A stretch of DNA of 62,094 bases, the filler included, from Fonticula-like sp. SCN 57-25 (Eukaryota), in assembly GCA_001724245.1 (NCBI GenBank). It is 9 parts of 9 records of this genome, joined end to end, with 100 filler letters (N's around TTAATTAATTAA, not from the genome) between each part and the next. Parts side by side here need not be neighbours in the genome. Positions count along the whole stretch, not along the records: positions 27,147 to 33,524 come from MEDX01000453.1; positions 33,625 to 40,000 come from MEDX01000454.1; 7 more parts are not named here. One strand, given 5' to 3'. The translations under genes and the position numbers were made by a program. This document shows, in pieces, positions 21,715-55,664 of this stretch. The stretch's first letter is position 1. The number at the start of each line of letters is the position of its first letter. The notes beneath the pieces are model-generated. The model was not told where the DNA came from. It saw nothing but the letters and a program-made list of their open reading frames with translations, and made no database searches.

Positions 21715-24700
21715 ATGATGGCCGCTTCGGCGTACGGTTCGCCCGTGGGAGGGAGTCCCCCAATGTCTCCATCTCCGGGAGGAAACGGCCTTGGCCCAGA
21801 ATCAATTCAGCCTGGCGTCTTGTCGGCCAATTCGTTGCAGGAGATGCAGACGGCGCTGACAACTGCCGCCAACCTTCTCAACAGGACCATGACGAGCGAC
21901 GGCCGCGTCCCTGAGCTAGCGGACTTTTTCAACAGTATGCGCCAGGCGTTCATGCCTTTTCTTTTTTTCCATTTAATGCGTTCATTTACTCACCAGTTTA
22001 ATTCGTTTCCAGGCTCGTGGTCGGCCCAGTACGCGAACAGCGTCGAGCCCACCGCGAACGAGCCGGTGCTCCAGAAGAAGGTGACCGTTGAGCTTCCGAA
22101 AGCCATCTTGGACCAATACGAGTGTATGTACTTTTAAACCTTGTCCGCCAGCGGCTTAGTTGTTTTTTCATTAGATTTGGAGTGCAAGTGCTTCCTGGGA
22201 TTGTTCCCCGAGATCAACCGTGCCTGGCTCACGATCGACAATCGCCTCTTCCTGTGGAACTACGACAACGGGAGCGACTTTCAGTCGTACGATGAGCTTG
22301 ACCAGATTATCGTGAGCGTGGCGCTGGTTCCCCCGCGCGAGGGCATCTTTATTGCCGAGATCAAGCATCTGCTTGTTATTGCGACCCCTGTGGAAACGAT
22401 TCTTCTTGGCGTCTGTGTCGCCGAAGGCCGCCGCGGTGGTCTGGGCGGTGGTGACTTGACTCTCTATCCGACGCAGCTTTACGTGCCGTCGGACAATATT
22501 AATATGCTTTCGATTAAGGGCACGGATAACGGGCGGATTTTTATGTGCGGCCAGGACGGCAACCTGCACGAGCTCGTGTACCAGGCGGAGGACGGCTGGT
22601 TCGTTCGAAAGTGTCGCAAGGTGAACAGGACGCAGGGACGGCTGGCGGCGTTCACCCCGACTTTCCTAAAGTTTGTTGCTGACGGTACGGAAACGGTGGC
22701 AAGCTAAAGTTGCTCACGCGTGTCGACAGATCCCATCATGGCGATAGACATTGACAACTCGCGCAATATTCTCTACACTCTCTCGGAGCACAACGTTATC
22801 CAGGTCTTTTACCTTGGTCGCTCTGGAACCGAGCTGCATCGTGTTGCTGTTCGCAATGATGTTGCTAACGAAGCGAGACGCCAGTCCAACATGCAGTTAG
22901 ACCTGTGCGCGCAGCCTTTTCCCATGGCCAGAGTTTTTCTAACGATCTGTTTCAGCGCCACTTTCCGCATCGTTTCCATTCACGCGGTCACCATGGCAGA
23001 GTCTGCGCAGGTGCACCTCGTCGCTGTGACGTCCAATGGAGCCCGCCTCTACTTTACGACGCGCCGCTCGCCCCGCCTGTTTGGTGGACCGGGTGGGTTC
23101 AATCTTGGTTCGCACGCCAGCCCGTCGTCCCCAGCATCGCAGCAGCGCCCCAATGCAGGCCCCAGCGAGCCCGAGGCTCTCGAGTTGATGCATGTCCGCT
23201 GGGCGCCGTCGCTGTCCTCTGCCCAAAACGCCTCGAACGGGCTCGACCGCCAGATTCCTTCACGAGTGCACACCGCCTTTTACTCGGCCGGAACGCTGAT
23301 CCTCGCGAATGCCGTTTCCGACGAAACAGACCTTCTTATCGGCGTTTCTCAAGATCTGGGAGACTTTGTCAAGGTACGCGCTAATGAATCACCGCGTTCA
23401 TATCACTGACCGCCTCTCAACGAAGCAAACGGGCCGCTCGTCGCTCGTGGAAGTATCGTCCGAGTCGCTCGTGGAGGGCAAGACGTGGGCTATTGCCGAG
23501 CGGACGCCGCAGTCCGTCTCAGCCGCCGTTGCTGGAAGCCGCACCAATCCGCTGGCTGCCCAGCTTTCGCAGCCGCCCCGCCAGTTCCTCTGTCTCACCA
23601 ACACATGTGCGAGCCCTACATCTTTTTTTGTCTTTTCCCACCCCTTCTCACGTCTTGCCGCCAATCAGATATTGCGGTGCTCCAGGAGGTTCGCCCGCTG
23701 GATCACCTGCGCCAGCTGTTGGTAGAGGTGCAGGGCCAGCCTACTCATCAGATTGTAAAGTTCTTCCAGCGCTACACGCCCGACGAGGCATGCTGCATGT
23801 GTCTTGCGCTAGCGTGCAGCACAAGCGCTGGTGCGGGCTCATCCGTCGCGCGCATGCCCGCGTCGTCGTCGATGGGCATGATGCGTGGCGGCGATGAGAA
23901 TGTTGCCCAGTACGCGACGTCCATTTTCTTCCACTATGGCGGCGTCCCGCAGTCGATTCAGCGGACGGACACGTTCGAGAGGGTGTACGGCAGCTCGCTC
24001 GATGCGCGCGAGGTGCAGTACTCGTCCATGCACAACGCCATTGTGCGCTACTTTGCGCGCCTCGTGCGGCCTGTTTGGAAGCTGCCCGTCGTGTCCCTCG
24101 CGGCGTCGCCCGAGGCCGCACAGACCCTCCTGGCGACTGTGTCGGAGCAGCTGACTCGCCTCAAGAATTTCATGATCGCCAACCAGCACATTATGGGCGG
24201 GACGCGCTCGTCGGCGACGGCCGATCACTACCGCACTGACTACAACGCTAGCCTCTTTGGTGCTCAGGCGACGCCGGTCCAGGCCAACGAGGAGGCGCAG
24301 CAGCAGCAGCAGCAGTCGCTCAGGAGCCTCGAGCGCCTCTTGATCCAGACGATCGAGGCACTGTCGTTCCTTTCGACGCTCTACGATCACAACATTTCGG
24401 ACCTGGCCACGCGGGCCTCGAGCGGCACGGTGCCGGCGGGCCCCGCTGGCGCCGTCGTGCCCCTGGTCACTATTAAAAATCTCCAGTTTGAGAACCTCGT
24501 CACGACGACGCAAGGGCGCGATATCGCCAAGGAGCTCGCGGCGGCCCTCCTCAACAAGCAGATCCACCTGGGTGCCAGCGTGCGTCAATCGGTAATTGCG
24601 TTCCGTGTCCTCACCCTCTTTAATACCGATAGGTCGAATCTTTGCTTCAGATCTTCCGGGCGCGCTGCCCCACGATCCTGTCGTCCAACGACCTGACTCT

Positions 24701-26379
24701 TTTCCGTGCGACCGAGGTATTGCAACGCGCCAAGGACGTTGCGGAATCGAACCCGGTCGAGCGCAACAACCTGCTGCAAGAGTCCCTGCGCCTCTTCCAT
24801 ATGGTGGCTGCGCACATTACCCCCGTGAAGCTGCAGACCATCTGCAACGACTACATGTCTATGCGGTTCCACGCCTGTACGGATCACGCTTGTTTATGGT
24901 TGATTCATCGCATTAACGATTTTTTTTAGTTGCCATTGACCTCTGTCTCTTGACCGCGAGCAGCTGCGATCCGACGAACCAAGCGACGCATTTCCACATT
25001 GCCGGTCGCCCAATCAATGACCCCCGCGAGCCCATTTTCCGCCTTCGGTTGGCTCTGTACGAGTGCGCGATCCACGTGCTGGAGGAGGCCGAGGCGCTCT
25101 CGTCTCGGCGGCCCACGTCGGGCACCAACAACACGGACAGCGAAGCCGTTGCTACGTGCGACATGGCGTTCAAGGTGGCCTTTTCCTCGAATGACGCGCT
25201 TTGGCACGAGGTCATGTACCAGTGGATGATTGACGCGGACGAAAAGACTCTGCAGCGACTTTTGGGCGTACGCTGCCTCCCATTGTATCTACATTTGTTT
25301 GCTCATATTTAATTGTCCTCGCAGGCCGAAACGCCCTACGTTGAGGTGTTCCTGTCGACCAAGGCAAATGACGAAAAGGACCCGAACCCCGATCTCCTGG
25401 CCCAGTACTACCTGCGCAACAACCGCTTCCTGGACGCGGCGCAGACGCTGTTCCACGTGGCCAGCATGCCGTGCGCGAGATACAACCTCGCGCGCCGCAT
25501 CGAGTACCTGGCCAAGGCGAAGCTTGCGGCTCGCTCTATCGTGCCGACGTCGGGCACGACCGACACGTCGGACCTGTCGCGCGACATTGACGAGTACATG
25601 GAGGTGGCGGCCATTCAGCAGCAGATCCTGACGCTGCTTGAGCGCCGTCCAGCGACGGACGAGACGCTTTCGGCCACCCGCGCGCTCAACGAGACCATCC
25701 TTAGCGTGACCGACTTGTACGCCAACTACGCGCGCAAGTTCCAGCTGCACGAGACCGCGCTCGCCATCTTCCACTGCAGCCACTTTAACGACATTGCAAA
25801 GATCGAGGATGTCTGGACAAAGATCCTCAACGAGGAGGCGGCCAAGTCGTTCTCGTCGGTGGTGGCCACCGTTCTCCGCATCGGCCGTCAGTACCACCCT
25901 TCCAACTCGGCCTTCCCCGCGGAGAACCTCGTCCACAAGCTGGAGCGGTTCACGTGGCAAAAGTACCGCGACACGGTCGACGGCGGATGGGTGGCGCAGA
26001 CGATGCTCGACGTTGGCGTGCTTCCCGAGACGCTCTACCTGACCTACCAGCGCATGTTCCAGACGCGCGCCTACGATACCTGGGTTCGCGACGAGACGCT
26101 AAGGAAACGCGCGCTCGTCCAGATGCTCCGCTCAATCGCGACCATCCTCGAAAAGTGGTGGGCCACCGTCGCCACCCTTCCCGCCCAGTCGCTGAGGAGG
26201 TGCGCTTCCTAGCATTCCCTTGTTGTTTCATCAACTAACCCGAGAGTAGGCCGGCCGCTGAAATTGAAAAGGCCATCGATAGCAATCTGGTCGCCCTCGG
26301 CCAGTACTCCACCGAGCCTGGCGCGGCTGCTGTCGAGGAACGCCTGCGCGTGCTGCAAACGCGCGTTCGCCAGCGCTGA
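21715..26379 (+). CDS. NUP155: Nucleoporin Nup155/Nup170, multi-exon
   Basis: GLFPEINRAWLTIDNRLFLWNY, GRIFMCGQDGNLHELVYQAEDGWF..KCRKVN, EACCMCLAL, DLLAQYY, LARRIEYLAKA, DLYANYA. Confidence 0.95.
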
Positions 26380-26718: not shown

Positions 26719-27046
26719 ATGGCCCACGGGCGGCCGCTGCTGACGCTCTTGGTGGACAACTATGATTCTTATACGTATAATCTCTACCAGATGCTGGCTG
26801 TTATCAACGGTGTCGAGCCATTAGTGATTCACAATGACAGTCTTACCGAGTACGTAACATTTGTTTTCATGCGCGTGCCACTCACGGCCAGCCATCAGGG
26901 ACGAGGTGCTTGATCTGCTTCGTCATGTCGACAACGTGGTAATATCGCCCGGTCCAGGCCGCCCTGACCGTTCCTCCGACTTTGGCGTATGCACCGCTCT
27001 ACTGCGACAGACGCAAGTGCCTGTGCTCGGTGTGTGTCTGGGGCAT
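26719..27046 (+). CDS. ABZ1: Aminodeoxychorismate (PABA) synthase, glutamine amidotransferase domain, 3' truncated
   Basis: [39 protein letters not shown]. Confidence 0.85.
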
Positions 27047-27146: not shown

Positions 27147-27254
27147 CTCAGCAAGGAGACGACCGACACGATGCTCGACGGGCTCCGCAGGATCAGGGAT
27201 CAGCTGCAGGGCGTCACGGCCGCGGCCCAGACGCAGGCGCAGCAGGCCGCGTAA
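27147..27254 (+). CDS. COMMD9: COMM-domain protein C-terminus (COMMD9-like)
   Basis: LSKETTDTMLDGLRRIRDQL resembles the COMMD9 C-terminus (LSKETLDTMLDGLGRIRDQL). Only 35 codons are visible. Confidence 0.7.
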   Translation, partial: LSKETTDTMLDGLRRIRDQLQGVTAAAQTQAQQAA

Positions 27255-27999
27255 AGTGTATCACAATAGAGTCTGAGTTTGAATTTGATATTTAGTCTGG
27301 GAATATGGGGATAGTCGGGGGTGATTGCCCACTGTCAATTTAGCGAGATGCAGTGGAACGGAGATGCGGATGTCGTCTAAATCCATTGCCATTGATCCAA
27401 TCACGATGCGATACCAAATACATCAAAGAGCATGATAATTGTCGCGCGAGCAAGAGTCGCTACGTCTGGCTTCATCTCTTGCTAGCCATAATAATCCATA
27501 CAAAAGTACTGTCTTAAGTTATGGAAAGAGCGCAAACTATGGATAGTACAGTACGATACGGACTTGAAGCTTGGTCGTCAATCACGTGACCACTTTGCAG
27601 GACCATATTGCAGTTTGCACTCGGTGAGGGTTGGAGTTGGCAATTGCATCTCTCCAGCAGCAGCGTTTTACGAGGATTCGAGGAAAGCAGAAAAGTGGTT
27701 GACGCAATGGCGCTTCGGTTAGTCAAAAAGGCGGTTATAGAACTGCCTCTGGATAATCTTTGGTTAGGGGTTCGTCGCCATTCTGCGATGTGCTGCTGTC
27801 CTGATGCTGATGCCTCTCGCGTTTTCAAAAGGGAGTTTGTTGTGCGATTTCCCCCGATGGTACTTTGGTGGCAACTGGCACTTGGCACAACGATTCTCTT
27901 TGCATCATCAATATTGCCAAGCAGGAAACGGTGCACACTGTCAACTGTGGCTCTGTTCGTACTGAATCGTCTTCCACCTTGCCGGTCTGACTTCATGTT

Positions 28000-29856
28000 A
28001 ATTAAAGGTCGGTGCTGTTGCGTGGTCGCCCGACGGAACGCGTCTTACCGCCGTGACTTATAAAGGCGCTGTGATCCAAGTCAAAGACAACTATTCAGAC
28101 TACTCTATTGCATGCAATAATTATAGATACGGAATCGTGCGCATTATGTTTGCCGGCCTTTGTTTGCTCACCCCTTGGTCTAGTTGGTTGCATGTGCGTT
28201 CAGTCCTCGCGGGATCCTCGCCATTGGTGGGAACGAACACAATGTGATGCTCGTGGATCCATACAACCACTATACTCTTATTCAAACATTGACTGGTTTG
28301 GATCGTTCTGTGCGTTAGCAAATGAATATTAATTTGCGTTGCCTCATTATTGAGTATGCAGATTATTTGTCTTACCTTTTCCCACGATGGGAATATTCTT
28401 GCCGCGGGATGTGCTAATGGCCACATATACATTTACAAACTGACTGATGGCAAGTGGGCGCAATTAACTGATATGACGTATGGACACTATGATAAATATG
28501 CTGTAAGATTCTTTCTTTACTTGTCTTCATATTCTCGTTGCTAACCCTTCCTAGATCAATTCGCTCTGCTTCAGTCCTTCGGGCCGCAGACTATTGGCCA
28601 GATCTGCCAATTGGGATGCTGTCATTTACAATATTCCATTAGCAGGTACCACATGGCCATCCACTCCTAACGTGACACTGTATGGATATGAACACACGGT
28701 CGGCGGTGCCTTTCTTTGGGACGAGTCGCACGTCATTGCTGGGTGCGGTCGATCGCTCCGCGTTTGGCGCATTTCTGATGGAGTGGAAACTGCAAACTAC
28801 GACTGTGATGGTTGGGTGCGTCACTCACTTGCTTATTTATAGTACTTACTGTTGATGCTATGCAGGTGCATTCGTTGTCATACCATGCGGCGTCTGGCAC
28901 CGTTGCTGTTGGTCTTGATCGTTGTCAAGTTATAATATGGCAAACGTCTCTTCATATTTCACCATCTGCCGCCCTGCAATGTGCCAAGTCCGCTCACGTG
29001 TGCGCTCGCGAGCGGCTGGCGGAGGCGCAGGCACAAGTCAAGGATATTGAAGCATCGCTTGAAAAGGCAGACAGTGGATTGCGTCAGCAAATGTCGCGTG
29101 AGCAGGAACTGAAGCTCCTCATTGCCGAGCCCGAGGCCAAATGTGCGCACATATTCTGGTGTACATTTGCCTCTCGTATTGAATTGTTAATGTTTAGCGG
29201 CGAGTGAGAAGGAACTAGAGGAACTGCAAACTCCCGATTACATAGCACAATCAAGTGATATTACTAAGCTAATCGCGCGCCAGAATGAACTACTTGGCAT
29301 CATTCATGGTTACACGCAGACACTTGACAGCTTGACAGATTGCCTCTCTGTTACCGGATTGGACGATCTGCGCGGAGAGACCTTTCGCGAATGGCTCTGT
29401 GACATTGGCCTTGGCAAACTGCAAACTGCACTAAAGGACTTTGATGGGCGCACGCTGACGAGGATTCTAACTGTGAGTGACATCGTCGATTATGACGTCT
29501 CATTCAATGATGCTGCCACTCTCCAACTGCGCGGCTACATTGCGCACTACAAGCTGAGCGATGACCGTACATTTAACCCACCGAGCGACAGTGTTTTGTC
29601 ATGGGATCGAGTGCAAACTGAAAACTGGATCATGACGCATTGGGCGCCTTGTAATTATTGTCTTGCCTCTGCTGGCTGGCATGGCGCTGCGCTGTGCTCG
29701 CTTTCGCCATCTCGCGTGGTCGAGACAACTCGGGGCATGCTCAAGACACCTGACGCCGTCAAGTTCATTGGGCTGGTGCGTCAAATGCGGAGCGAAAGGG
29801 ACGGCGACAAGGACGAGTGGGTGGCAAAGTGGAGCGGACTAAACCTCATCGCGTGA
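28000..29856 (+). CDS. WD40 repeats + coiled coil + two SAM-like domains, multi-exon (start uncertain)
   Basis: WD exons (CAFSPRGILAIGG, CLTFSHDGNILAAGCANGHIYIY, SLCFSPSG, SLRVWRI), coiled coil, then EWLCDIGLGKL...DFDGRTL and LSWDRVQTENWI...GWHGAALCSL. Confidence 0.7.
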
Positions 29857-29912
29857 TAAGGGCCGCTAAAGTTTGACATATCCGCTGTTCTCTATCGGTG
29901 GTGTTTTTCTCT

Positions 29913-30250
29913 ATTCAATGATTTTTTTGTCTTTTTGCTCGCGCATTTTCAATGCAGCCGTCCGTCCCTTCCATGCGCGAAAACAGAGATTTGGCGGGAA
30001 ATCAAGCGGGAGGGAAATTGGCGGGAAATCATTGATGATGGGGTCGCTCGACGATCGCTGACTGTAGATGATGCTGCCAATGAATTGACTGGAGCCGTAA
30101 AGGCTGTAAAGGCGCGCCAGCGCGTACGTCCCTCTTACACTTGCTCATCAGAATTGGTGCCCCGCGATCATGCGATGATGCAATAGCAATGTGCCAGAGA
30201 AAGACGTCCGTGATTTGTAAATTTGTGCCGTCCAATCAACTGGCGTCTTC
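29913..30250 (+). repeat. Conserved inter-gene spacer, copy 1 (contains two TTGGCGGGAAA)
   Basis: Near-identical to 31359-31677 with small indels; its first ~60 bp recur at ~33372-33425. Confidence 0.92.
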
Positions 30251-30482
30251 GACATGAAGAGCTGGCGGCGCGGCGCTAAAGAACGGGTCAAAAAGTGGGC
30301 GGCGCGCCAGCGAGGGATTGTGGATGACGTTGACAAGGTGGGAGAGGTGGAGTGGAAGCTGGTGGAAATAAATGGTGAACGAATTGAATTGATGATTCTT
30401 TGAATAATGGACCAAGAATAGTGCTGTCACCATCAGGTCACCAATATTGTGTAACTGTCTGCAGGGTCATCATCCGCGCGCG

Positions 30483-31167
30483 ATGGGCAACTCGTCCAGC
30501 ATTCACCGAGGTCTGACCGGGATCAATATTGAACATGCGCAGGCTTTTGCCAAAAAGCTCGTCGCCGAGTGGGACGACTTTGTAAGCGCTGTTCTTAAGG
30601 CCAAAAAAACCCAAGATTCGGCGCCGCTGGCGGCCTCGCCACGCGTCTCTTCGCCCCCGCCCGCCAGCTCGCCATCCTCGTCGCCACTGGCAACGGCTCG
30701 CGAGGAAGAGTCTGCCGCAGCAGTAGCCTTGGTGAGGTACGCAAAAGCGATAGCTCGCGACGAAACTGCCGACGGCGCGATCAAGGACATCAGCGAACAG
30801 CTATGCGTTGCCCACCTATTCCTTATCAACCAGTTCAGCATGGACTATGTTGACCGCCTCAAGCTACTCAAGATGTATCTGCAAGACAATTTTGTCGTAC
30901 GTTAGCGTACCGTTTTCACTGAATTGAACACTTAATTATTCTCAGGAACACCTTTCTCAAGCGTTCTTCCTCGTGAACACGCTTGTCCACCAGTGCGGTC
31001 TGGCTGACCATGTGCATCTAGCAATGTTTTTTGATATGAACGTGCTTGAACTCGTCAAGCACACCGAGTTGGTATGGCACGACTACCACCGCATCAAGCA
31101 TATCTTGCCTGCCATGAACATCATCAAACAAGGCCTAGACGATTACAAAGAGAGCAAGAGTATCTAG
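30483..31167 (+). CDS. Hypothetical protein with an N-myristoylation-like start (MGNSSS), two exons
   Basis: Intron 30897-30945 (gtacgt...ctcag) joins LQDNFV to EHLSQAFFLVNTL in frame. Confidence 0.65.
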
Positions 31168-31258
31168 CTCCTTTGCATTGCTTTAACTAGTCTCCCTTAT
31201 ATAAAATCTCTTGACCAAACTATCGAATGCGTACATTGAGGACAATATGGAGTAAATG

Positions 31259-31358
31259 GGACGATTGGGTGGCAATATGGAGCGGGGCGCACACAATTGA
31301 GATTCAAGGCATGCAGTGTCAGTTCTCTTGTGCACACTCCTATTGTTCTTGTTTATCG
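31259..31358 (+). pseudogene. Short remnant of the SAM-gene 3' end
   Basis: ggacgattgggtggcaatatggagcgg (DDWVAIWSG) vs 29811 ggacgagtgggtggcaaagtggagcgg (DEWVAKWSG). Confidence 0.75.
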
Positions 31359-31677
31359 ATTCAATGTATTTTTGTCTTTTTGCTCGCGCATTTTCAATGC
31401 AGCCGTCCCTTCCATGCGCGAAAACAGAGATTTGGCGGGAAATCAAGCGGGAGAGAAATTGGCGGGAAATCGTTGATGATGGGGATCGCGGATCGTAGAT
31501 GATGCTGCCAATAAAATGACTGGAGAAGTCAAGGCTGTAAAGGCGCGCCAGTGCGTACGTCCCTTTTACACTTGTTTATTAGAATTGGTGCCCCGCGATC
31601 ATGCGATGCAATAGCTGGGTGCCGGAGAAAGACGTCCGTGATTTGTAAATTTGTGCCGTCCAATCAACTGGCGTCTT
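31359..31677 (+). repeat. Conserved inter-gene spacer, copy 2 (contains two TTGGCGGGAAA)
   Basis: Aligns with 29913-30250. Confidence 0.92.
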
Positions 31678-31705
31678 GACTTTATAGGCATGCTGACAGA
31701 ATCTG

Positions 31706-32992
31706 ATGCACTCGCGGAGGGATAGCGATGAAGGGAACGGTGCCGCCGACCGAGTGAGAGATGCGCTCGATGTAGACAATGAGAAATCGGAGGAGAATAC
31801 GAACGGTAAGTTGGTGACTTCCCTGGTCGCGGCTGGCCTTGGTCTCGCCTTTCTGTCGTGGCGGTACGGTCCTGGTGCTCGTCGAGCACGCATGCAGCAC
31901 GCGTTCGAGTCTGGCGGATCCAACCTCTCCGGTCACGCCACAACTGACTCGCAGAGCACACTTGTTAAGCGCGATACTCTTGTAAAGCAACTTCGTTCCC
32001 TTTTTGCTGATTGGCGTTCGCCCCTCTATAAAGTGGTCATTGGCGAAGCGGGGACTGGAAAGTCGGTGGCTGTGAGACAGGCTCTTTTGCTGGACCGTTT
32101 TGGCAAAGGCGGTGCCAAGGGCACCCTGTATTTTTTAGCACCTACATCTTTGAATGGTTTTCCGCGCGCATTCGCCAGCGTCTCCGGTTATGCTGGCACG
32201 TATGTGAATATCTTGGGCTCGCTTCTTGCATTGTTTAACATGGCAGAGAAACCCAATGGCGCTCAGTTTCCCGCCAAGTACATGGACGCCTGGGAAGCCT
32301 TTGAACCTGCTTTAAATGAAGCTGCCGCAGCGTTTGAACGGAAGCACCACATTCGACCGACGCTTGTGATCGATGCTGCGGACATCATCGCTAAACAAGA
32401 TCCAGCGTTTTTCCGTGTACTGCAGGGCGTAGCTAAGGCCGGCGGAGACAAGACGCGCAAATTCAATCTTGCGTTTGTTTTAAATGAGGGCGCTGCCCTT
32501 TCATTGCTTGAAGACAATGGTATAAAGTCGCGCATGAGTCGCCCATTTGAAGTTGGAGATATCTCTGATGCTGAGGCAGCCGTCTTCCTCGTTGGCCGGT
32601 ATGGTGTCGCGCGTGAAGTGGCAGACACAATCGTTGCATCTTATACGGGCGGTCGCTTTGCGCTTCTTAACTCCGTGGGTGATGATATGAAACGTGGGAT
32701 TTCCTTTGAGGAGATCTGCAAGGTGGCACACAAGGCATTGGACAAGAATCTCACTGACCTCGGCATCGATGTTGATCATGAGCTGTTCAAGCTCCTGGTA
32801 AAAGACAAGCGCTACGACACGAACGAGGCGCGTAAGCTCAAGGGCATGAGCGCTAATATACTTGATCAACTAGTCAAGCACAACATTCTAGCACTACACC
32901 CGAACGAGACCTACACCTTCCAATCTCGCTACGTGGAGACCTTTTTTGCTCGCAGCATTTCTCCCCCTTCTCCCCCTTCTCCCGCTTCGTAA
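31706..32992 (+). CDS. P-loop ATPase (archaeal-ATPase/STAND-like) with an N-terminal hydrophobic helix, intronless
   Basis: Walker A GEAGTGKS, Walker B PTLVIDAAD, FEVGDISDAEA, YTGGRF; TM-like LVTSLVAAGLGLAFLSW. Confidence 0.8.
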   Translation: MHSRRDSDEGNGAADRVRDALDVDNEKSEENTNGKLVTSLVAAGLGLAFLSWRYGPGARRARMQHAFESGGSNLSGHATTDSQSTLVKRDTLVKQLRSLFADWRSPLYKVVIGEAGTGKSVAVRQALLLDRFGKGGAKGTLYFLAPTSLNGFPRAFASVSGYAGTYVNILGSLLALFNMAEKPNGAQFPAKYMDAWEAFEPALNEAAAAFERKHHIRPTLVIDAADIIAKQDPAFFRVLQGVAKAGGDKTRKFNLAFVLNEGAALSLLEDNGIKSRMSRPFEVGDISDAEAAVFLVGRYGVAREVADTIVASYTGGRFALLNSVGDDMKRGISFEEICKVAHKALDKNLTDLGIDVDHELFKLLVKDKRYDTNEARKLKGMSANILDQLVKHNILALHPNETYTFQSRYVETFFARSISPPSPPSPAS

Positions 32993-33042
32993 CTCTAGCA
33001 TTTTCTTTAAATGTGTAGCCGCGCACATGAATGCATTGTTAT

Positions 33043-33425
33043 TGATGGGCAAACGCTGATGATGCGTAATGTGGATGAGATCGTCGACTTTGGCGTGACA
33101 TATCCTGATGCTGCCGACCTCCAGCTGCGCATTGTGCACTACAAGCTGAGCGATGACCGCGCATTTGACCCACCGAGTGACAGTGTGCTCTTATGAAATG
33201 ATACGCGTACTGCAAACTCACATAGTTTCTCAATCTTGTGAGGGCAAAGCGAGGCCAAGAGACGGCGATAAGGACGATTGGGTGGCAAACTGGAGCGGGC
33301 GGCACACAATTGAGATTTTAGGGCATGTAGTGTCGCTTCTCTTGTACACACTCCTATAGTTCTTGTTTATCTATTCAATATTTCTTGTCTTTTTGCTCGC
33401 GCGCCTCAATGCAGCCGTTCTTTCC
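33043..33425 (+). pseudogene. Degenerate, internally deleted copy of the SAM-domain 3' end plus the start of the spacer
   Basis: DGQTLMMRNVDEIVDFGVTYPDAADLQLR.VHYKLSDDRAFDPPSDSVL* and RDGDKDDWVANWSG parallel the 29440-29856 protein; it has a premature stop. Confidence 0.85.
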
Positions 33426-33626
33426 AGGGAAAAGTTAAGTGTCATCGATGACACATAGCGTTAAGTGTCATCGAATCACGTGATCATATGGAATGACTGC
33501 GCATAATCCGGGTTTTTTCCGGATNNNNNNNNNNNNNNNNNNNNNNNNNNNNNNNNNNNNNNNNNNNNTTAATTAATTAANNNNNNNNNNNNNNNNNNNN
33601 NNNNNNNNNNNNNNNNNNNNNNNNCG

Positions 33627-34266: not shown

Positions 34267-34317
34267 AAACTCCATCAAGGCGATTCGAAATTGAGAAACT
34301 TTGATGGAATGCTCTTC

Positions 34318-34672
34318 AAACAAGCAAAGCCTCCATTGAACCTATATATTTCAAGGACATTGAATTGCGACTATCAAGATGGACAAGAATTTAAAAAATA
34401 ATTTAAAAAACATAATTTAGGGAGCAGTATTATGCACCACTTTATGGAGCACGCCGATACTTCTAGGTCAATTTTCGAAATCGCATGGCGTGTTCAAGAA
34501 AGGCAGAGGGTGCTCTTTAACAAGCTTAACCCTCATTGAACCTATATAAGGACATTGAATTGCGACTATCATAATTGACAATAACTTAGGAGGCAACATT
34601 TAGTAACAACTCACCTTAATACTTCTAGGTCAATTTTCGAATTTGATTGGCTTGTTGAAGAAAGGCGGAGGG
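34318..34672 (+). repeat. Diverged tandem duplication (units of ~150-190 bp)
   Basis: cattgaacctatata...aaggacattgaattgcgactatca...atacttctaggtcaattttcgaa...aagaaaggc.gaggg occurs twice (~34318-34510, ~34519-34672). Confidence 0.8.
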
Positions 34673-35168
34673 AATATTGCTTGAAACTCTTACTCGCGTA
34701 TATGGAGAAGACAGTCAACTTAATTAGTATTAGTGAGATTTATTGAATTTTAGTTTTTTTAGCATATTTTATCGATTTGAATAAACGCGGCGTGTCTCAA
34801 AAGAGGGAAAACTCACACGCTAGAAGCGGCGCAGATCCCTTTGAGGTCATTGGGATTGTGATAGCAGTGCAAGTGCACACGCGCGTCACTGTGAAATGTG
34901 CAAATGCGGTATACCATGTCATATTTCAGTACTTATACCGTAAACCACGGATTGAACCAAACGAGCGACGAAAAGCAAGGCTACAAAACATATGTTTGGC
35001 CACTATCTTTCGCCTATCCCTCTTTTGCCTATCCCTATTCCGTGCGCTCGAAACCCCAATACAGAGCGAGTCATCACAAAGCCTCTAGCCAGAAACGTAT
35101 ATTCCCATGAATAATCGAGAAATTGCTATTGCATCATGCGTATTACAATCACATCATATCCCCCTTGT

Positions 35169-37473
35169 CTATTGCAGGAGCGCCTGCACGACAGCCTTGA
35201 CATTCAACGACCTCAAATCCGTGTACTTTTGCCCCACACCGACAAACACAATCGGCTGCCCCGTAATGTACGTCATCGACAGCGCGGCGCCCACCTTGTC
35301 GTCAATCGTGTCAAACTTTGTCAGCACGATCCCGTCCACCTGCCGCGGCACGGCAAGATCCGCCGAGTACTTTTTCAGCGCGTTATTAAACTTTACGAGC
35401 TGGTCGACGCCGTCATTCCCGACGAGCGCCTCGCCGACAAAAAAGACCTTGTCGGGCTGGTTGACGCGCACGACCTTTGCCAGCTCGCGCATCAGCGGCT
35501 CATTGTCCTGCATGCGGCCGGCCGTGTCGACAAGAACTACGTCATAGCCGTTGCCGCGCGCGTGCGCAATCGCGTTCCGCGCAACGTCGGCGGCGTCCTT
35601 GTCGTAGCCCTGCTGGTAAAGGTCGACAAACTTTGGCCGATCTTGGCCATCAACGCCGGGGATCGCTGCAAAGGTGTCAGAAAAAAGCGCGGGAAAGAGG
35701 AAAAATCATGTACCATTGAGGTTGTTGACGTGGCGGCGGAGCTGCTCGACGGCGCCAGAGCGGAAAGTGTCGCCCGCCGCGATCAGCACGCGTAGGTTGT
35801 TCTGAATCAGCCAAAAGCTGACGTAATCGGGTTAGTCAAACAAGTATGATGCTGATTATGCGTACCAGATCTTGGAGAGCGTTGTTGACTTGCCGACGCC
35901 GTTCACGCCGCAAAAAGTGATGACGTACGGCCGCTTGTGGTCAGCTCGTACCGCCAAAATGTCACTAAAAGCGCACAAAATGAGCCATATTACCACAAAA
36001 AGGCCACAAAAATGCCACAAAATCATACCGCAAAATGTCTGTTGACACGCGCGGCGTCAGGATACGCTGCAATGCCGGCTCCATGCTCTCCTTCACCATC
36101 GCGTGCACCGTCTTAAACGACCCCGGCTTCTTTCCAATAAGCGTCTCCTGCAGGCTCGCGCACAGCTTGTCGGCAATGTCAACGGCAACATTCTTGCTCA
36201 CAAGGTGGTCCTTCATCTTGATCATCACGGGCTCCAGGTCGGCGGCATCAATCGTCTAGCGCACATCGGTCAGCAAGCAGGGAAAAAAGGGGGTAAAATG
36301 GCGCGCCTTTTGGCCCGAAATGCCCTGGAAGAACGACCAGATGCGCCCGCCGGTGCTCGCGGCCGGCTTGGCGGCGGCGGCGGTCGGCGCCCGCGTCGTG
36401 CTCTTGCGCACATCTTCCTCCTCCTCGTCGTCCTCCTCCTCCTCGTACTCTTCCTCTTCTTCCTCGTCGTCGTCGCGCGTCTCGAGCCCCTCTACTTCGT
36501 ACACGTCCTCTGCGCCCTTTTCCCGGATCGCCGCGAGCTTTTGCATGTCAACGAGCTCGGTGACGCCCGCGGCGGGCGCCTCGGCGGCCTTGTCGCCCTT
36601 GCTGTCGCTGTAGTCGAGCGCGGCGGCGCGCTGCGAGGTGACCTTGGCGTTCTTGGGCGCCGCCTTGGCCTTGCCGCGCGGCGCGGGCTCGGGCGACGTC
36701 GGCGTCGAGGCCGGCTTGGGGGCGGGGGAGGAAGACTTTTTGCCCTTGATGCCGAGCGCGCGCATCTTTGAGGCGATGTCTTCCTTGGAGCGCATGCTGC
36801 CGGGCGGCGATTGGGGAGGCGAAACAAGATCAGTGTCGGAAGATGGCGAGCGAGCAGACGGCTCGGCGGCAACAGGCGTGGTGTCAATGGAAGGCGGCGG
36901 CGAGGGGAGGGCGGCGGCGATCTTGTCGTCCTTGGCCAATGCGACCTCGCTCTTCTTGGTAAAGGTGCGCTGCGTGCGCGGCTTGGCCGTCTAAATGGCA
37001 GCCATTTAGTCCTGCAGATCACACAAAAAGAAGCAAAATGACGTACCTCGGAGAGATAGTGCTGCAGAATGGGCGCAAAAGTTCCCTTAAAGTCGAAATC
37101 GTGGAGGCGCGTCTGATCCCCGAGCTGGCTAGAGTACTTTTCCGTAAAGGTCTTGCGGAGCGAGTCGAGCAGGCTGTCGACATATGTGAGCACGAGCGTC
37201 TTGTTGTACGCGGCCACAAAGATCAGCTCCAGCGGGTTGTCCAGCTTCCACTTGAGCGACCAGTTGCCCGACGTGTACGTGTCATAACCGGCGCGCTCCT
37301 GCATCGAGCCGTCAGCACGAGATCGAAAGAAAGGATCGAGCAAATGACGCGTCACGTACCTCGATCAAAACCGACCGCACGAGCTCGTTCACCACAGAGT
37401 CCGGGACGGGGTGCAGCTCGTTCGTCCACAGCACGAGGCCGCCGCGCGTGAACACCGCGACAAGGTCCAGCAT
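35169..37473 (-). CDS. SRPRA: Signal recognition particle receptor alpha subunit
   Basis: [16 protein letters not shown] (SRX domain), [70 protein letters not shown]. Confidence 0.96.
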
Positions 37474-37578
37474 CGCGCAAAGCTCGCCGCCGACACTCTG
37501 CCGCTCGGCTTTTGTTTGCGTGACGTAAAAGTCGGTTTCAGGTTTGTTTGAAACCGACTTTTGACTCGGATCTCCACG

Positions 37579-53121: not shown

Positions 53122-55664
53122 ATGGCGGACAACGCCACGCTGGAGGGAGCGCTCCAGTATGAGGAGACAATGCTGGAGCAGGCGAATGTCCTGCTCGACT
53201 ACTTTAAAAAGCGCGCCGAGATTGAGCATGCCTACTCAAAGAGCTTGACCGAGCTCTCTAACGCAACGCAGAGCTCGATGGACGCGCTCGCCGCCAAGAT
53301 TGTCGGCGGGTCGGCGAATACGGGGACGCAGGGGCGAGGCGGCATCTTTGCCAAGCTGACCAAGGATAACCGGAAAGCGTCCATGTCGGACCTCAGCCGC
53401 GAGGTTGGCGCGACGACGATTGGCTCGACCATGTCGGCGGGCCTTGCCGACGTCTTTAGCGACAGCGGGAGAGACGCCGCGCGCCACGAGGAGTGCTCGA
53501 GGCAGCTCAAGACGGCCGTCATCCCAAAGTGCAACGAGTATCTAAAGGCTCTGCATGGGCAGCTCAAGGACATTTCGGCGCACAAGCACCAGTCGGTCGC
53601 GAGCACCAAAGGTACGCCCATCATGTTTGTGCGCGGTCAACTGAATGCCTCTGTTGCAGCGCCGTCGGTGGCCACCAGCGGCTTTGTACAGGAGACGCAA
53701 ATGTCGCAGGTGCTCCAGCGCCTCGCTCAGTATGAGCAGTCGCGGTACGCTTTTTGTTTTGGCGCGCATTCTGATCCTGACCGACCTCATTTCCTCTTCC
53801 CAGCCTCTTAATTATTCGCGAAGTGATTATGAGCTACTGCTCGATACGCGGCGTGTTTAGCCAGGGCACGTCGACCGACTGCGACAGCGCCGTCGGCCGC
53901 CTCCAGCGCATCGACATCAACGAAGACTACGCCGAGTTTTGCCAAGAGTTTGTGCGCCACAATCAGCTCGACGGCCTCACGGCGACGCACCAGGGCGAGC
54001 TGTGGCGCCGCACGCTGCGCAACGACACGTGGGACCGCCGCGAGTTCATGCTCGTGAGCGACAAGCAGCTGCTCGTGTATTACAGCACCAAGCACAGGCA
54101 CAAGGTCAAGAGCGTCGCGCGCCTCTCAAAGTACACGGTTCACAACGTTCACGAGTCGTTTTCCAAGCGGCCGTACGCGTTCCTGCTCGCGTGCTCGAAC
54201 GACGGCGGGCAGCTCGAGGAGACGCTCGTGCTCTCGGCAGAATCGCAGGAGGAAAAGGGTGCGTCATTTTACCTTTTTTGTCGCCGTGTTCTCTTTTTTC
54301 CCGCCATTTTATGCCTATACTTTTGTTTGATACTGGCATTGGCTGTCTTTCACTAAAATTTTACTGGTTTTCTACCTCTTTTCCTGCCTTTTCTTGCCTT
54401 TTCCCGCCTTGCCCTTCCTTTTCCCGCCATTTTACCCATACTTACCTTTTCGATTATAGAAAAGTGGCTTCGTCTGCTTGTACAGTGCTGCTACTGCTGC
54501 GAGCCATGCGCCGCCCTCGGCAGCACGCACCTCAAGCGGTACCCGCGCTTCGGCTCGGACGACCCCGACTCGCCCTATCAGCAGCGCACGCTCAGCGTCC
54601 GCGTCATCGAGGCAGAGGGCTTTGATTCAAGCAAGGACACTTATGCCGTCCTTCGTACGAGAGGCGTTTATTTTAATATGTTAACTGAATTGGCGGGTGA
54701 ATTTGTAGAGTTTGGCGGTTCGCAAGGGCGCGGGATTCCGTTTGCGAGGACGAGCACAAAGTACCGCTCGAATGCGCACGAGTGGAACGAAGAGTTTTCC
54801 ATCGAGTACGCATGTTGGTTTGGTTTAGTTTGGTTTGGTTTATGTTTGGTTTTGACTTTTTTTGGCATGTTTTTGCTTGTTTCCGCCACACCTTTGCATG
54901 TTTCCTCTTGCCCATTTCGGCCACTTTTTCCCCTTTCTCTGCTGACATTCTCGTTTTTCCAGTGAAATCCACCATGACATTTCTAGTGTGCGCATCACCG
55001 TCTACTACCAAGGCACGCTACTTGCCCGCGGCGACAGCGCCGTCGGCTCCGTCGTTGTCCCCCTCGACGGCCACGGCGGCTGGCCCGACGGCCGCTGGTT
55101 CCCCCTCGAGAGCACGCGCGGCGAAGGCTCCTCCTGCTCGGTCACCCTCAAGCTCGCCGTCGGCGTCTGGGACAAGTTTGTCCTCACGCAAGACCAGTAC
55201 GAGCCGCTGTGGGACCTTGTGCGCGACCAGTTTGCCGCCACGTCCATCTGCATGAACAATGTCACTGGCAACTGCGACGAGCTGTTTGAGCCGCTGTACG
55301 CCGCCTGCACGCACTATGGCGGCGAGGCGACCGTGCTGTCCTGCTTTGCCGACCTGGCGCGCGCCGAGGTGCAGTCGACGGCGGACTTTCGGACGCTGTT
55401 CCGGCAGAGCACCTTTGCGCTGCGCATGCTCGAGCGGCTCATGCGCCACGTGGGGCGCGGCTACCTGCAAAACAGCGTTGGGCCAATCATCAAGCTTATC
55501 ATTCAGGAGGACCAGCTGTGCGAGGTGGAGCCGGGGCGGCTCAGGCAGGGCGATGATATTGAGATGCAGCGGGCGAGGCTGCTGAGGCATGTAAAGTCGA
55601 TCTGGGGGGCGACGTCAAAGTCGATCAATTTGTGTCCGAAGTTGCTGAGGCATTTGTTTACGCA
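53122..55664 (+). CDS. FCH/F-BAR-like + PH + C2 + RasGAP protein, 3' truncated
   Basis: YFKKRAEIEHAYSKSL (FCH), PH (QLLVYY...VHESFSKRPYAF...AESQEEK), C2 (VRVIEA, FARTSTK...EWNEEF, RWFPL), RasGAP (TLFRQST...GRGYLQ...CEVEP...CPKLLRHLF). Confidence 0.85.

Follow-up and report, generated by a model that had tools for sequence, protein, structure and literature searches.

Genes and relics of the locus

The locus examined here is a single 6,378-bp contig, C453 (MEDX01000453.1), of the uncultured eukaryote Fonticula-like sp. SCN 57-25, and it occupies positions 27147-33524 of the window, the whole 62,094-nt stretch of contigs joined by linkers that was analysed. The assembly (GCA_001724245.1) amounts to 9.5 Mb in 749 contigs; it is incomplete and repeats may have been dropped from it. 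Three genes lie on the + strand of the contig: an intact member of a large WD40-coiled coil-SAM-SAM family (unit 1), an orphan gene of two exons and a P-loop ATPase gene, the last two each followed by a relic of the same family.

Unit 1 spans 27707-29856 and encodes a predicted protein of 592 aa in eight exons (27707-27769, 27832-27954, 28008-28136, 28184-28309, 28362-28502, 28555-28815, 28866-29142 and 29198-29856), which splice into an open frame; the sequence-only reading that first drew attention to the array had placed its start at 27900. The introns of the genes follow the GT-AG rule and are about 37-69 nt long, which marks the organism as a eukaryote. Six of the seven introns in unit 1 are in phase 0 and separate exons of WD40 size, a symmetry that could permit exons to be shuffled among paralogs, and the seven intron positions are common to most models of the family.

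The WD40 portion of the protein is recognised by Pfam WD40-type matches on two exons. The SAM assignment draws on several lines of evidence that are individually weak and jointly consistent: SAM_1 is matched in 18 of 45 family last exons at E <= 1, the profile of the last exon matches the tandem SAM domains of liprin-beta1 (E 2e-4), and the predicted structure of that exon (pLDDT 91.6) has tandem-SAM proteins as its top Foldseek matches. SARM1, liprin and Caskin provide the top sequence and fold matches, although these are weak (best Foldseek E 0.015, none below 0.001), and there is no TIR or other effector domain here. In the structural model the W-V-x-K-W-S-G block sits after the long last helix of SAM2 (model helix 182-200), so that what had been described as the end of the SAM gene is a C-terminal motif of the family, predicted to lie outside the SAM core.

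The family comprises about 55-60 paralogs, co-oriented in tandem arrays as the sequence-only reading had supposed; the last exon of unit 1 has 66 matches in the genome and the tail of one paralog has 55. Unit 1 is 51-64% identical to 27 other near-complete family models, and across the 28 models pairwise dN/dS is 0.52 for the propeller and 0.17-0.24 for the SAM domains. A profile search of 1.84 billion representatives returned 44 matches only, and a description of the family was not found in a full-text literature search of incomplete coverage. WDSUB1 and WDSUB1-like genes contain seven WD40 repeats, a SAM domain and a U-box (PMC3087547), and unit 1 resembles them in combining an N-terminal WD40 propeller with SAM; in contrast, it has a coiled coil, two SAM domains, no U-box and a large expansion, the likeness being one of domain layout. 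Unit 1 ends at its W-S-G tail, and no U-box occurs among the Pfam matches of the 45 last exons. Two distant relatives of the family carry a tandem SAM followed by a U-box (P0039, E 1e-7; P0044, E 2e-9), as does the WDSUB1-like locus L111 (C169), which points to a WDSUB1-like ancestry.

Upstream of unit 1, an E-box motif (CACGTG-N5-TTTGCAG) lies at 27583-27600, 124 nt before the gene, and is the putative promoter element of the family. CACGTG stands upstream of 23 of the 25 family genes examined, unit 1 included. The extended motif precedes family genes in 12 of 13 matches in the surveyed stretches, a strict form does so in 13 of 14 (the 14th is at a contig end), and four of the six genome-wide matches with the exact spacing of unit 1 are at family genes. 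The looser form found at this locus also occurs at non-family sites, so the candidate promoter motif is common before family genes and not exclusive to them.

The orphan gene (30483-31167) encodes about 210 aa, with an intron at about 30897-30946 and an N-terminus, MGxxxS, that we take to be of the myristoylation type. The genome holds no convincing paralog, and the searches run returned no relatives beyond a variant of exon 1 that is 90% identical; this variant, in which 10% of residues differ, fits the differences seen in an orphan piece from sequencing run X1. None of 601 candidate metagenome contigs was confirmed to carry the orphan locus. In pieces from a second run, X4, all four listed substitutions are synonymous and a 1-nt deletion falls within the predicted intron, and the orphan therefore looks like a real gene; the one substitution listed for X1 changes a residue. 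Exon 2 was considered as a hidden SAM domain and gave no hidden Markov model (HMM) match.

The ATPase gene (31706-32992; 428 aa) has an intronless body, a Walker A motif (GEAGTGKS) and, by eye, a hydrophobic N-terminal stretch. The only Pfam matches are AAA_16 (E 1e-5) and nSTAND5 (E 9e-4), both below cut-off. One paralog at 44% identity resides on contig C372, where no family gene occurs anywhere in the 8 kb, and 12 further relatives at 31-43% are all of similar length (range searched, 234-748 aa). The closest relative, P0002, is apparently the C372 ATPase or a close variant of it and lacks the Walker A lysine (G-S-G-T-S, against G-T-G-K-S in the window copy). No sensor or effector domain was detected, fused forms having been covered within 234-748 aa only, and the protein is therefore not of the STAND/NLR type.

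The three gene bodies are unrelated, as had been proposed: the family last-exon HMM scores -1.7 on the ATPase and does not match the orphan, and BLASTP gives E of at least 0.6. What they share is found behind them. The D-[ED]-W-V-A-x-W-S-G block (family D3) recurs at 29811, 31259 and 33272, the first at the end of unit 1 and the others in two decayed family tails. Relic 2 (31259-31312) is made up of the last ~18 codons of a family gene and is 88% identical to relic 3 over 51 columns. Relic 3 (33041-33322) consists of a SAM1 fragment with an in-frame stop (33041-33218) and a C-terminal tail (33224-33322), separated by an internal deletion, and 33042-33186 is 76% identical to the SAM region of unit 1 at 29441-29594. 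The score of tail 2 is 73 with tail 3 and 39 with tail 1, whereas 200 shuffles of the whole contig reached 28 at best. The sequence-only reading was correct that both genes are followed by decayed family tails, although these do not directly follow the stop codons (91 nt separate the first from the orphan stop, and 48 nt the second from that of the ATPase), and relic 3 is more than a tail, keeping about 180 bp of SAM1 besides about 100 bp of the 3' end. The left edges of the relics differ accordingly: ~54 nt was kept in relic 2, and ~280 nt with the internal deletion in relic 3.

A tree was built from own-genome genes and nine of 30 other-sample loci. In it relics 2 and 3 pair with each other, and the intact gene of one such locus, L124, joins them in a clade (UFBoot 100); relic 3 is 83% identical to this gene, against 73% to unit 1. 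When the tree held own-genome genes alone, relic 3 came out next to unit 1 (UFBoot 94), a placement that was overturned by the addition of L124. The two relics are thus duplicates of one paralog lineage, unit 1 belonging to another, and they stand beside intact copies to which they are related by local duplication.

Spacers, flanks and the element at the contig end

Each family tail is followed by a copy of a conserved spacer. Spacer 1 (29906-30249) and spacer 2 (31352-31677) are 88% identical over 344 bp (E 2e-124), and a shortened third copy, with its family 3' flank, occupies 33323-33426; 31259-31414 and 33272-33426, which include the tails, are 86% identical over 157 bp. The conservation noted from the sequence alone therefore holds, and unit 1 shares this 3' flank with relics 2 and 3 though it is of another lineage. 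The spacer is confined to the locus: a search of the whole assembly gave three matches, all on C453 and each behind a family tail, so that a dispersed MITE or SINE in unrelated contexts can be set aside for this assembly, and the L124 locus does not carry it. No tRNA or Rfam match was found and no structured RNA is predicted (fold z 0.94).

The spacer had been read as part of a retained promoter and terminator frame. It lacks the CACGTG E-box and has no similarity to the region upstream of unit 1, and is therefore not the promoter of the family. Spacer 2 ends 28 nt before the ATPase ATG at 31706, so the upstream region of the ATPase gene must lie inside it. The spacer is accordingly best read as family 3' flank to which the upstream region of the ATPase gene itself is attached, the whole partly duplicated: in spacer 1 the flank would extend to about 29961 and the remainder would be a copy of the block upstream of the ATPase. 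The sharing of 3' flanks between tandem neighbours appears ordinary in this family, since among 50 flanks compared those of neighbouring intact copies are alike on C503 (82% over 365 bp) and C645 (78% over 359 bp).

Spacer 2 contains two copies of GGCGGGAAA, presumably an E2F-type site, and one of GCGCGAAA. As a promoter motif GGCGGGAAA is a weak candidate, with one clear upstream case in the window (26684, 35 nt before an ATG); its matches at 54297-54420 fall in T-rich, intron-like tracts. Possible 5' exons of the ATPase at 31516-31550 and 31615-31633, with introns of 64 and 66 nt, would extend the open frame to 448 aa; this model is only suggestive, since the choice was among three donors and eight acceptors.

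The shortness of spacer 3 is due to a multi-copy element that begins at 33427 and runs to the contig end at 33524. The same sequence, 99% identical, recurs where contigs C134 and C354 end, although its flanks there are unrelated, and in run X1 its depth is 211 against 14.5, about 15x the local value. This element end, present also in L113 and L114, contains a short internal direct repeat, an E-box and small palindromes.

At its other end (27147-27253) the contig holds the 3' end of an upstream reading frame with a Q/A-rich tail. The neighbouring contigs of the window carry housekeeping genes, including a nucleoporin (23410-26212; Pfam Nucleoporin_C, E 2e-58) and, by eye, what are presumably the start of a glutamine amidotransferase gene (26719-27046) and an SRP receptor alpha-like gene (35169-37530). 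Small tandem repeats of about 160-200 bp, 83-88% alike (families D12-D14), lie at 34300-34680 on the next contig.

A probable alternative haplotype and the search for recurrence

Four of the ten listed sequencing runs, none of which is RNA, were compared, all as assembled contigs and at a likeness setting of 85, and 32 of 1,580 contig pieces are listed; X1 may be the source sample and X4 belongs to another study. In both runs the promoter of unit 1 is joined to the 5' region of the orphan, from 27634 to 30298 in X1 (4.4x) and from 27630 to 30299 in X4 (3.6x). The letters inside both joints include the motif at 30251-30263, and the alternative haplotype rejoins the window in the junction at 30251-30306, where a 9-bp direct repeat (30264 and 30298) flanks 25 nt that are absent from it. 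Since such joints occur in two studies, unit 1 with spacer 1 is probably a presence/absence polymorphism. In X1 the listed pieces of unit 1 have a depth of 5.7-10x, compared with 14.5x for the orphan and ATPase pieces. On the simplest reading, at the level of contigs, a short haplotype would lack unit 1 and spacer 1 and would have the orphan flanked by the E-box promoter and relic 2. This reading is drawn from a single joint of low depth in each run, depth measured on contigs is a poor guide, a locus paralogous to this one could give the same joint, and the looser promoter motif of this locus is also found at non-family sites.

The long form is covered in pieces. X1 pieces bridge the orphan, tail 2 and spacer 2 (30566-31398) and, with no differences, spacer 2, the ATPase, relic 3 and spacer 3 (31648-33426). 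X4 pieces cover 32845-33064, 31225-31439, 27602-27843 and 30032-30273, the last reaching 24 nt beyond the end of spacer 1; in other X4 pieces, sequence like spacer 2 is joined to sequence like tail 3 and to sequence like spacer 1. The contig is not spanned in full by any of the 32 listed pieces, and by a 31-letter rule none bridges 29856-29906 or 30250.

Recurrence of the arrangement was surveyed with a DNA profile of 21 full-length family genes, run over 41 stretches of the own genome (40 besides C453, longer contigs being covered in part), and in the 30 other-sample loci. A foreign gene followed by a tail-only relic occurs on C453 and in none of the 40 other stretches or 30 loci. The nearest cases are a 49-nt tail echo directly after an intact gene on C38 and partial family copies on C661 and C61 that keep the 5' part only. 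Gaps between family copies do not exceed 1,095 bp in 25 of 26 cases. On C297 a 1,761-bp gap between intact copies holds a foreign reading frame with its own E-box and a broken transposase-like remnant (L079:2558-3900), whose presumed likeness to MULE elements has no support from Pfam. In another sample an intronless gene for an ArsJ-type organoarsenical efflux transporter of the MFS type (L128:2137-3696; NCBIfam 415 bits, cut-off 400) has an intact family copy on either side; the own-genome stretches surveyed did not yield it. Foreign genes thus appear to enter family arrays, but in these two cases they stand between intact copies.

Origin of the arrangement

The locus is probably best explained as part of an unstable tandem array of the WD40-coiled coil-SAM-SAM family that evolves by birth and death and into which foreign genes have been inserted, with probably one replacement of a gene body. 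Through local duplication one paralog lineage came to be represented by two or more copies, and the 3' flank was duplicated along with each. An ATPase gene, bringing the region upstream of it, would then have landed behind a family gene, and partial duplication of the family 3' flank together with the ATPase upstream block would have made the spacer. Two copies, now seen as relics 2 and 3, may have decayed by deletion, the orphan taking the place of one gene body, most simply through one insertion-with-deletion at a repaired break. At the level of assembled contigs, two haplotypes would coexist, one in which unit 1 and spacer 1 separate the promoter from the orphan and one that lacks both. An illegitimate join of an allele carrying the intact gene to the orphan allele is slightly favoured as the origin of the long form, because the point where the short form meets the window again is within 2-3 nt of where the spacer copies cease to be homologous, which would be a coincidence had that form arisen by deletion. 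Finally, the mobile element cut spacer 3. Dedicated swapping machinery is unnecessary for any of this.

Yeast tandem arrays (PMC2822764) provide the closest parallel: paralogs lie in direct orientation, degenerate relics stand by intact copies (relics in 11%), unrelated genes interrupt the arrays, and one array was disrupted three times by heterologous genes. In contrast to those described there, this family is much bigger, at about 55-60 copies in the 9.5-Mb assembly, the two relics have been cut down to their 3' ends, and a presence/absence haplotype is visible.

Several observations weigh against this explanation. In the short haplotype the orphan has a promoter motif of family type ahead of it and a family tail behind it, the geometry expected if a frame were kept and a body replaced, and two unrelated genes on one 6.4-kb contig both end beside family relics. 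The protein search overlooked the short tail that is relic 2, which came to light only through a narrow DNA pattern, so further relics of such a length may have gone unnoticed; 18 of the 19 matches of this pattern are known family genes or relics 2 and 3, and the remaining one (C327:839-864) has no match to the family profile. The recurrence scan took in only parts of the longer contigs. The X4 pieces that join tail 3-like to spacer 2-like sequence suggest that spacer 3 may be complete in other strains. The promoters and start sites of all three genes are predictions.

The first alternative, unlikely but compatible with an origin by birth and death, is that the orphan and the ATPase were gained by chance and kept as partners of the WD40-SAM proteins, as sensor and helper or in self/non-self recognition, with the haplotypes held by balancing selection. 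The occurrence of both haplotypes in two studies, the two forms of orphan exon 1 that differ at 10% of residues while the listed X4 changes are synonymous, and the faster evolution of the propeller relative to the SAM domains are in its favour. However, the C372 paralog of the ATPase has no family gene in its contig, other arrays are without orphan and ATPase partners, and the presence of the ArsJ-type transporter inside an array indicates that insertion there is not specific to conflict genes. Alternative haplotypes that differ in gene content at one locus are reportedly found at fungal idiomorphic allorecognition loci such as het-B of Podospora. The likeness extends to gene content, but here one haplotype appears to be a subset of the other, and any incompatibility or balancing selection at this locus would be conjectural.

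In a broader and decidedly improbable version, the locus would be a slot, behind one E-box promoter and before a family 3' end, that haplotypes fill recurrently and under balancing selection, some with a WD40-SAM-SAM gene and others with an unrelated one, the newcomers being recruited into family regulation; further units with other contents may then follow spacer 3 in strains without the inserted element.

Cassette swapping as a system, guided by homology or by an enzyme and with a constant promoter and terminator around exchanged bodies, was the interpretation of the sequence-only reading and is very unlikely. The promoter-orphan-tail geometry of the short haplotype in two studies speaks for it, and to that extent the idea of a kept frame survives at this one place; that homology of both spacer copies stops at the same position also speaks for it. 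This shared end point needs one break only, however, and the retained frame does not hold as a recurrent system: the spacer is distinct from the promoter of the family and runs up to the ATPase start, flank sharing is normal, the relic breakpoints differ, and the arrangement does not repeat among the other stretches and loci surveyed. A cassette array with a retained frame was not found for eukaryotes in a full-text literature search of incomplete coverage. Bacterial integrons consist of an integrase, an attC site and promoterless cassettes. C453 resembles them superficially in its co-oriented, unrelated genes separated by a repeated element, but no integrase, attC-like site or promoterless cassette is evident here, and the repeats are relics of a host family with no stable fold. 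No recurring recombination site with constant breakpoints was found at the locus, the relics having different left edges and the spacer being unstructured and restricted to C453. The earlier remark that no recombinase is visible is borne out by six-frame ORFs, which include none of recombinase size besides the three genes; a site-specific recombinase is absent among the ORFs of this contig, the rest of the genome not having been searched for one.

Capture by a transposon, Pack-MULE- or Helitron-like, that delivered the foreign genes and duplicated their flanks has similarly poor prospects. The multi-copy element at 33427, the 9-bp direct repeat at 30264/30298 and the transposase-like remnant by the foreign gene on C297 would fit such an event, yet neither the orphan nor the ATPase is bordered by inverted repeats or a target-site duplication, the 9-bp repeat encloses 25 nt only, and the element lies outside both genes. 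That the contig is a chimera of two haplotypes or strains, with the three units not on one molecule, is the least credible of these accounts: two haplotypes appear to be present and no listed piece spans the whole or bridges 29856-29906 or 30250, but the X1 pieces cross the joints of the orphan and ATPase units, and pieces from the other study cover the passages from tail 2 to spacer 2, from the ATPase to relic 3 and from the promoter into unit 1, as well as the end of spacer 1.

Under the preferred reading of birth and death with inserted genes, the new feature is the haplotype that joins the promoter to the orphan, relics and heterologous interruptions being already known from yeast tandem arrays. 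The locus would gain much in importance only if replacement had recurred with fixed breakpoints, of which the present data show none. As it is, it illustrates clearly how a large WD40-SAM-SAM family turns over in an uncultured eukaryote, with relics left behind and foreign genes entering the arrays, and the newcomer gene may inherit the promoter of the family, which would make it a small, testable case of regulatory capture.

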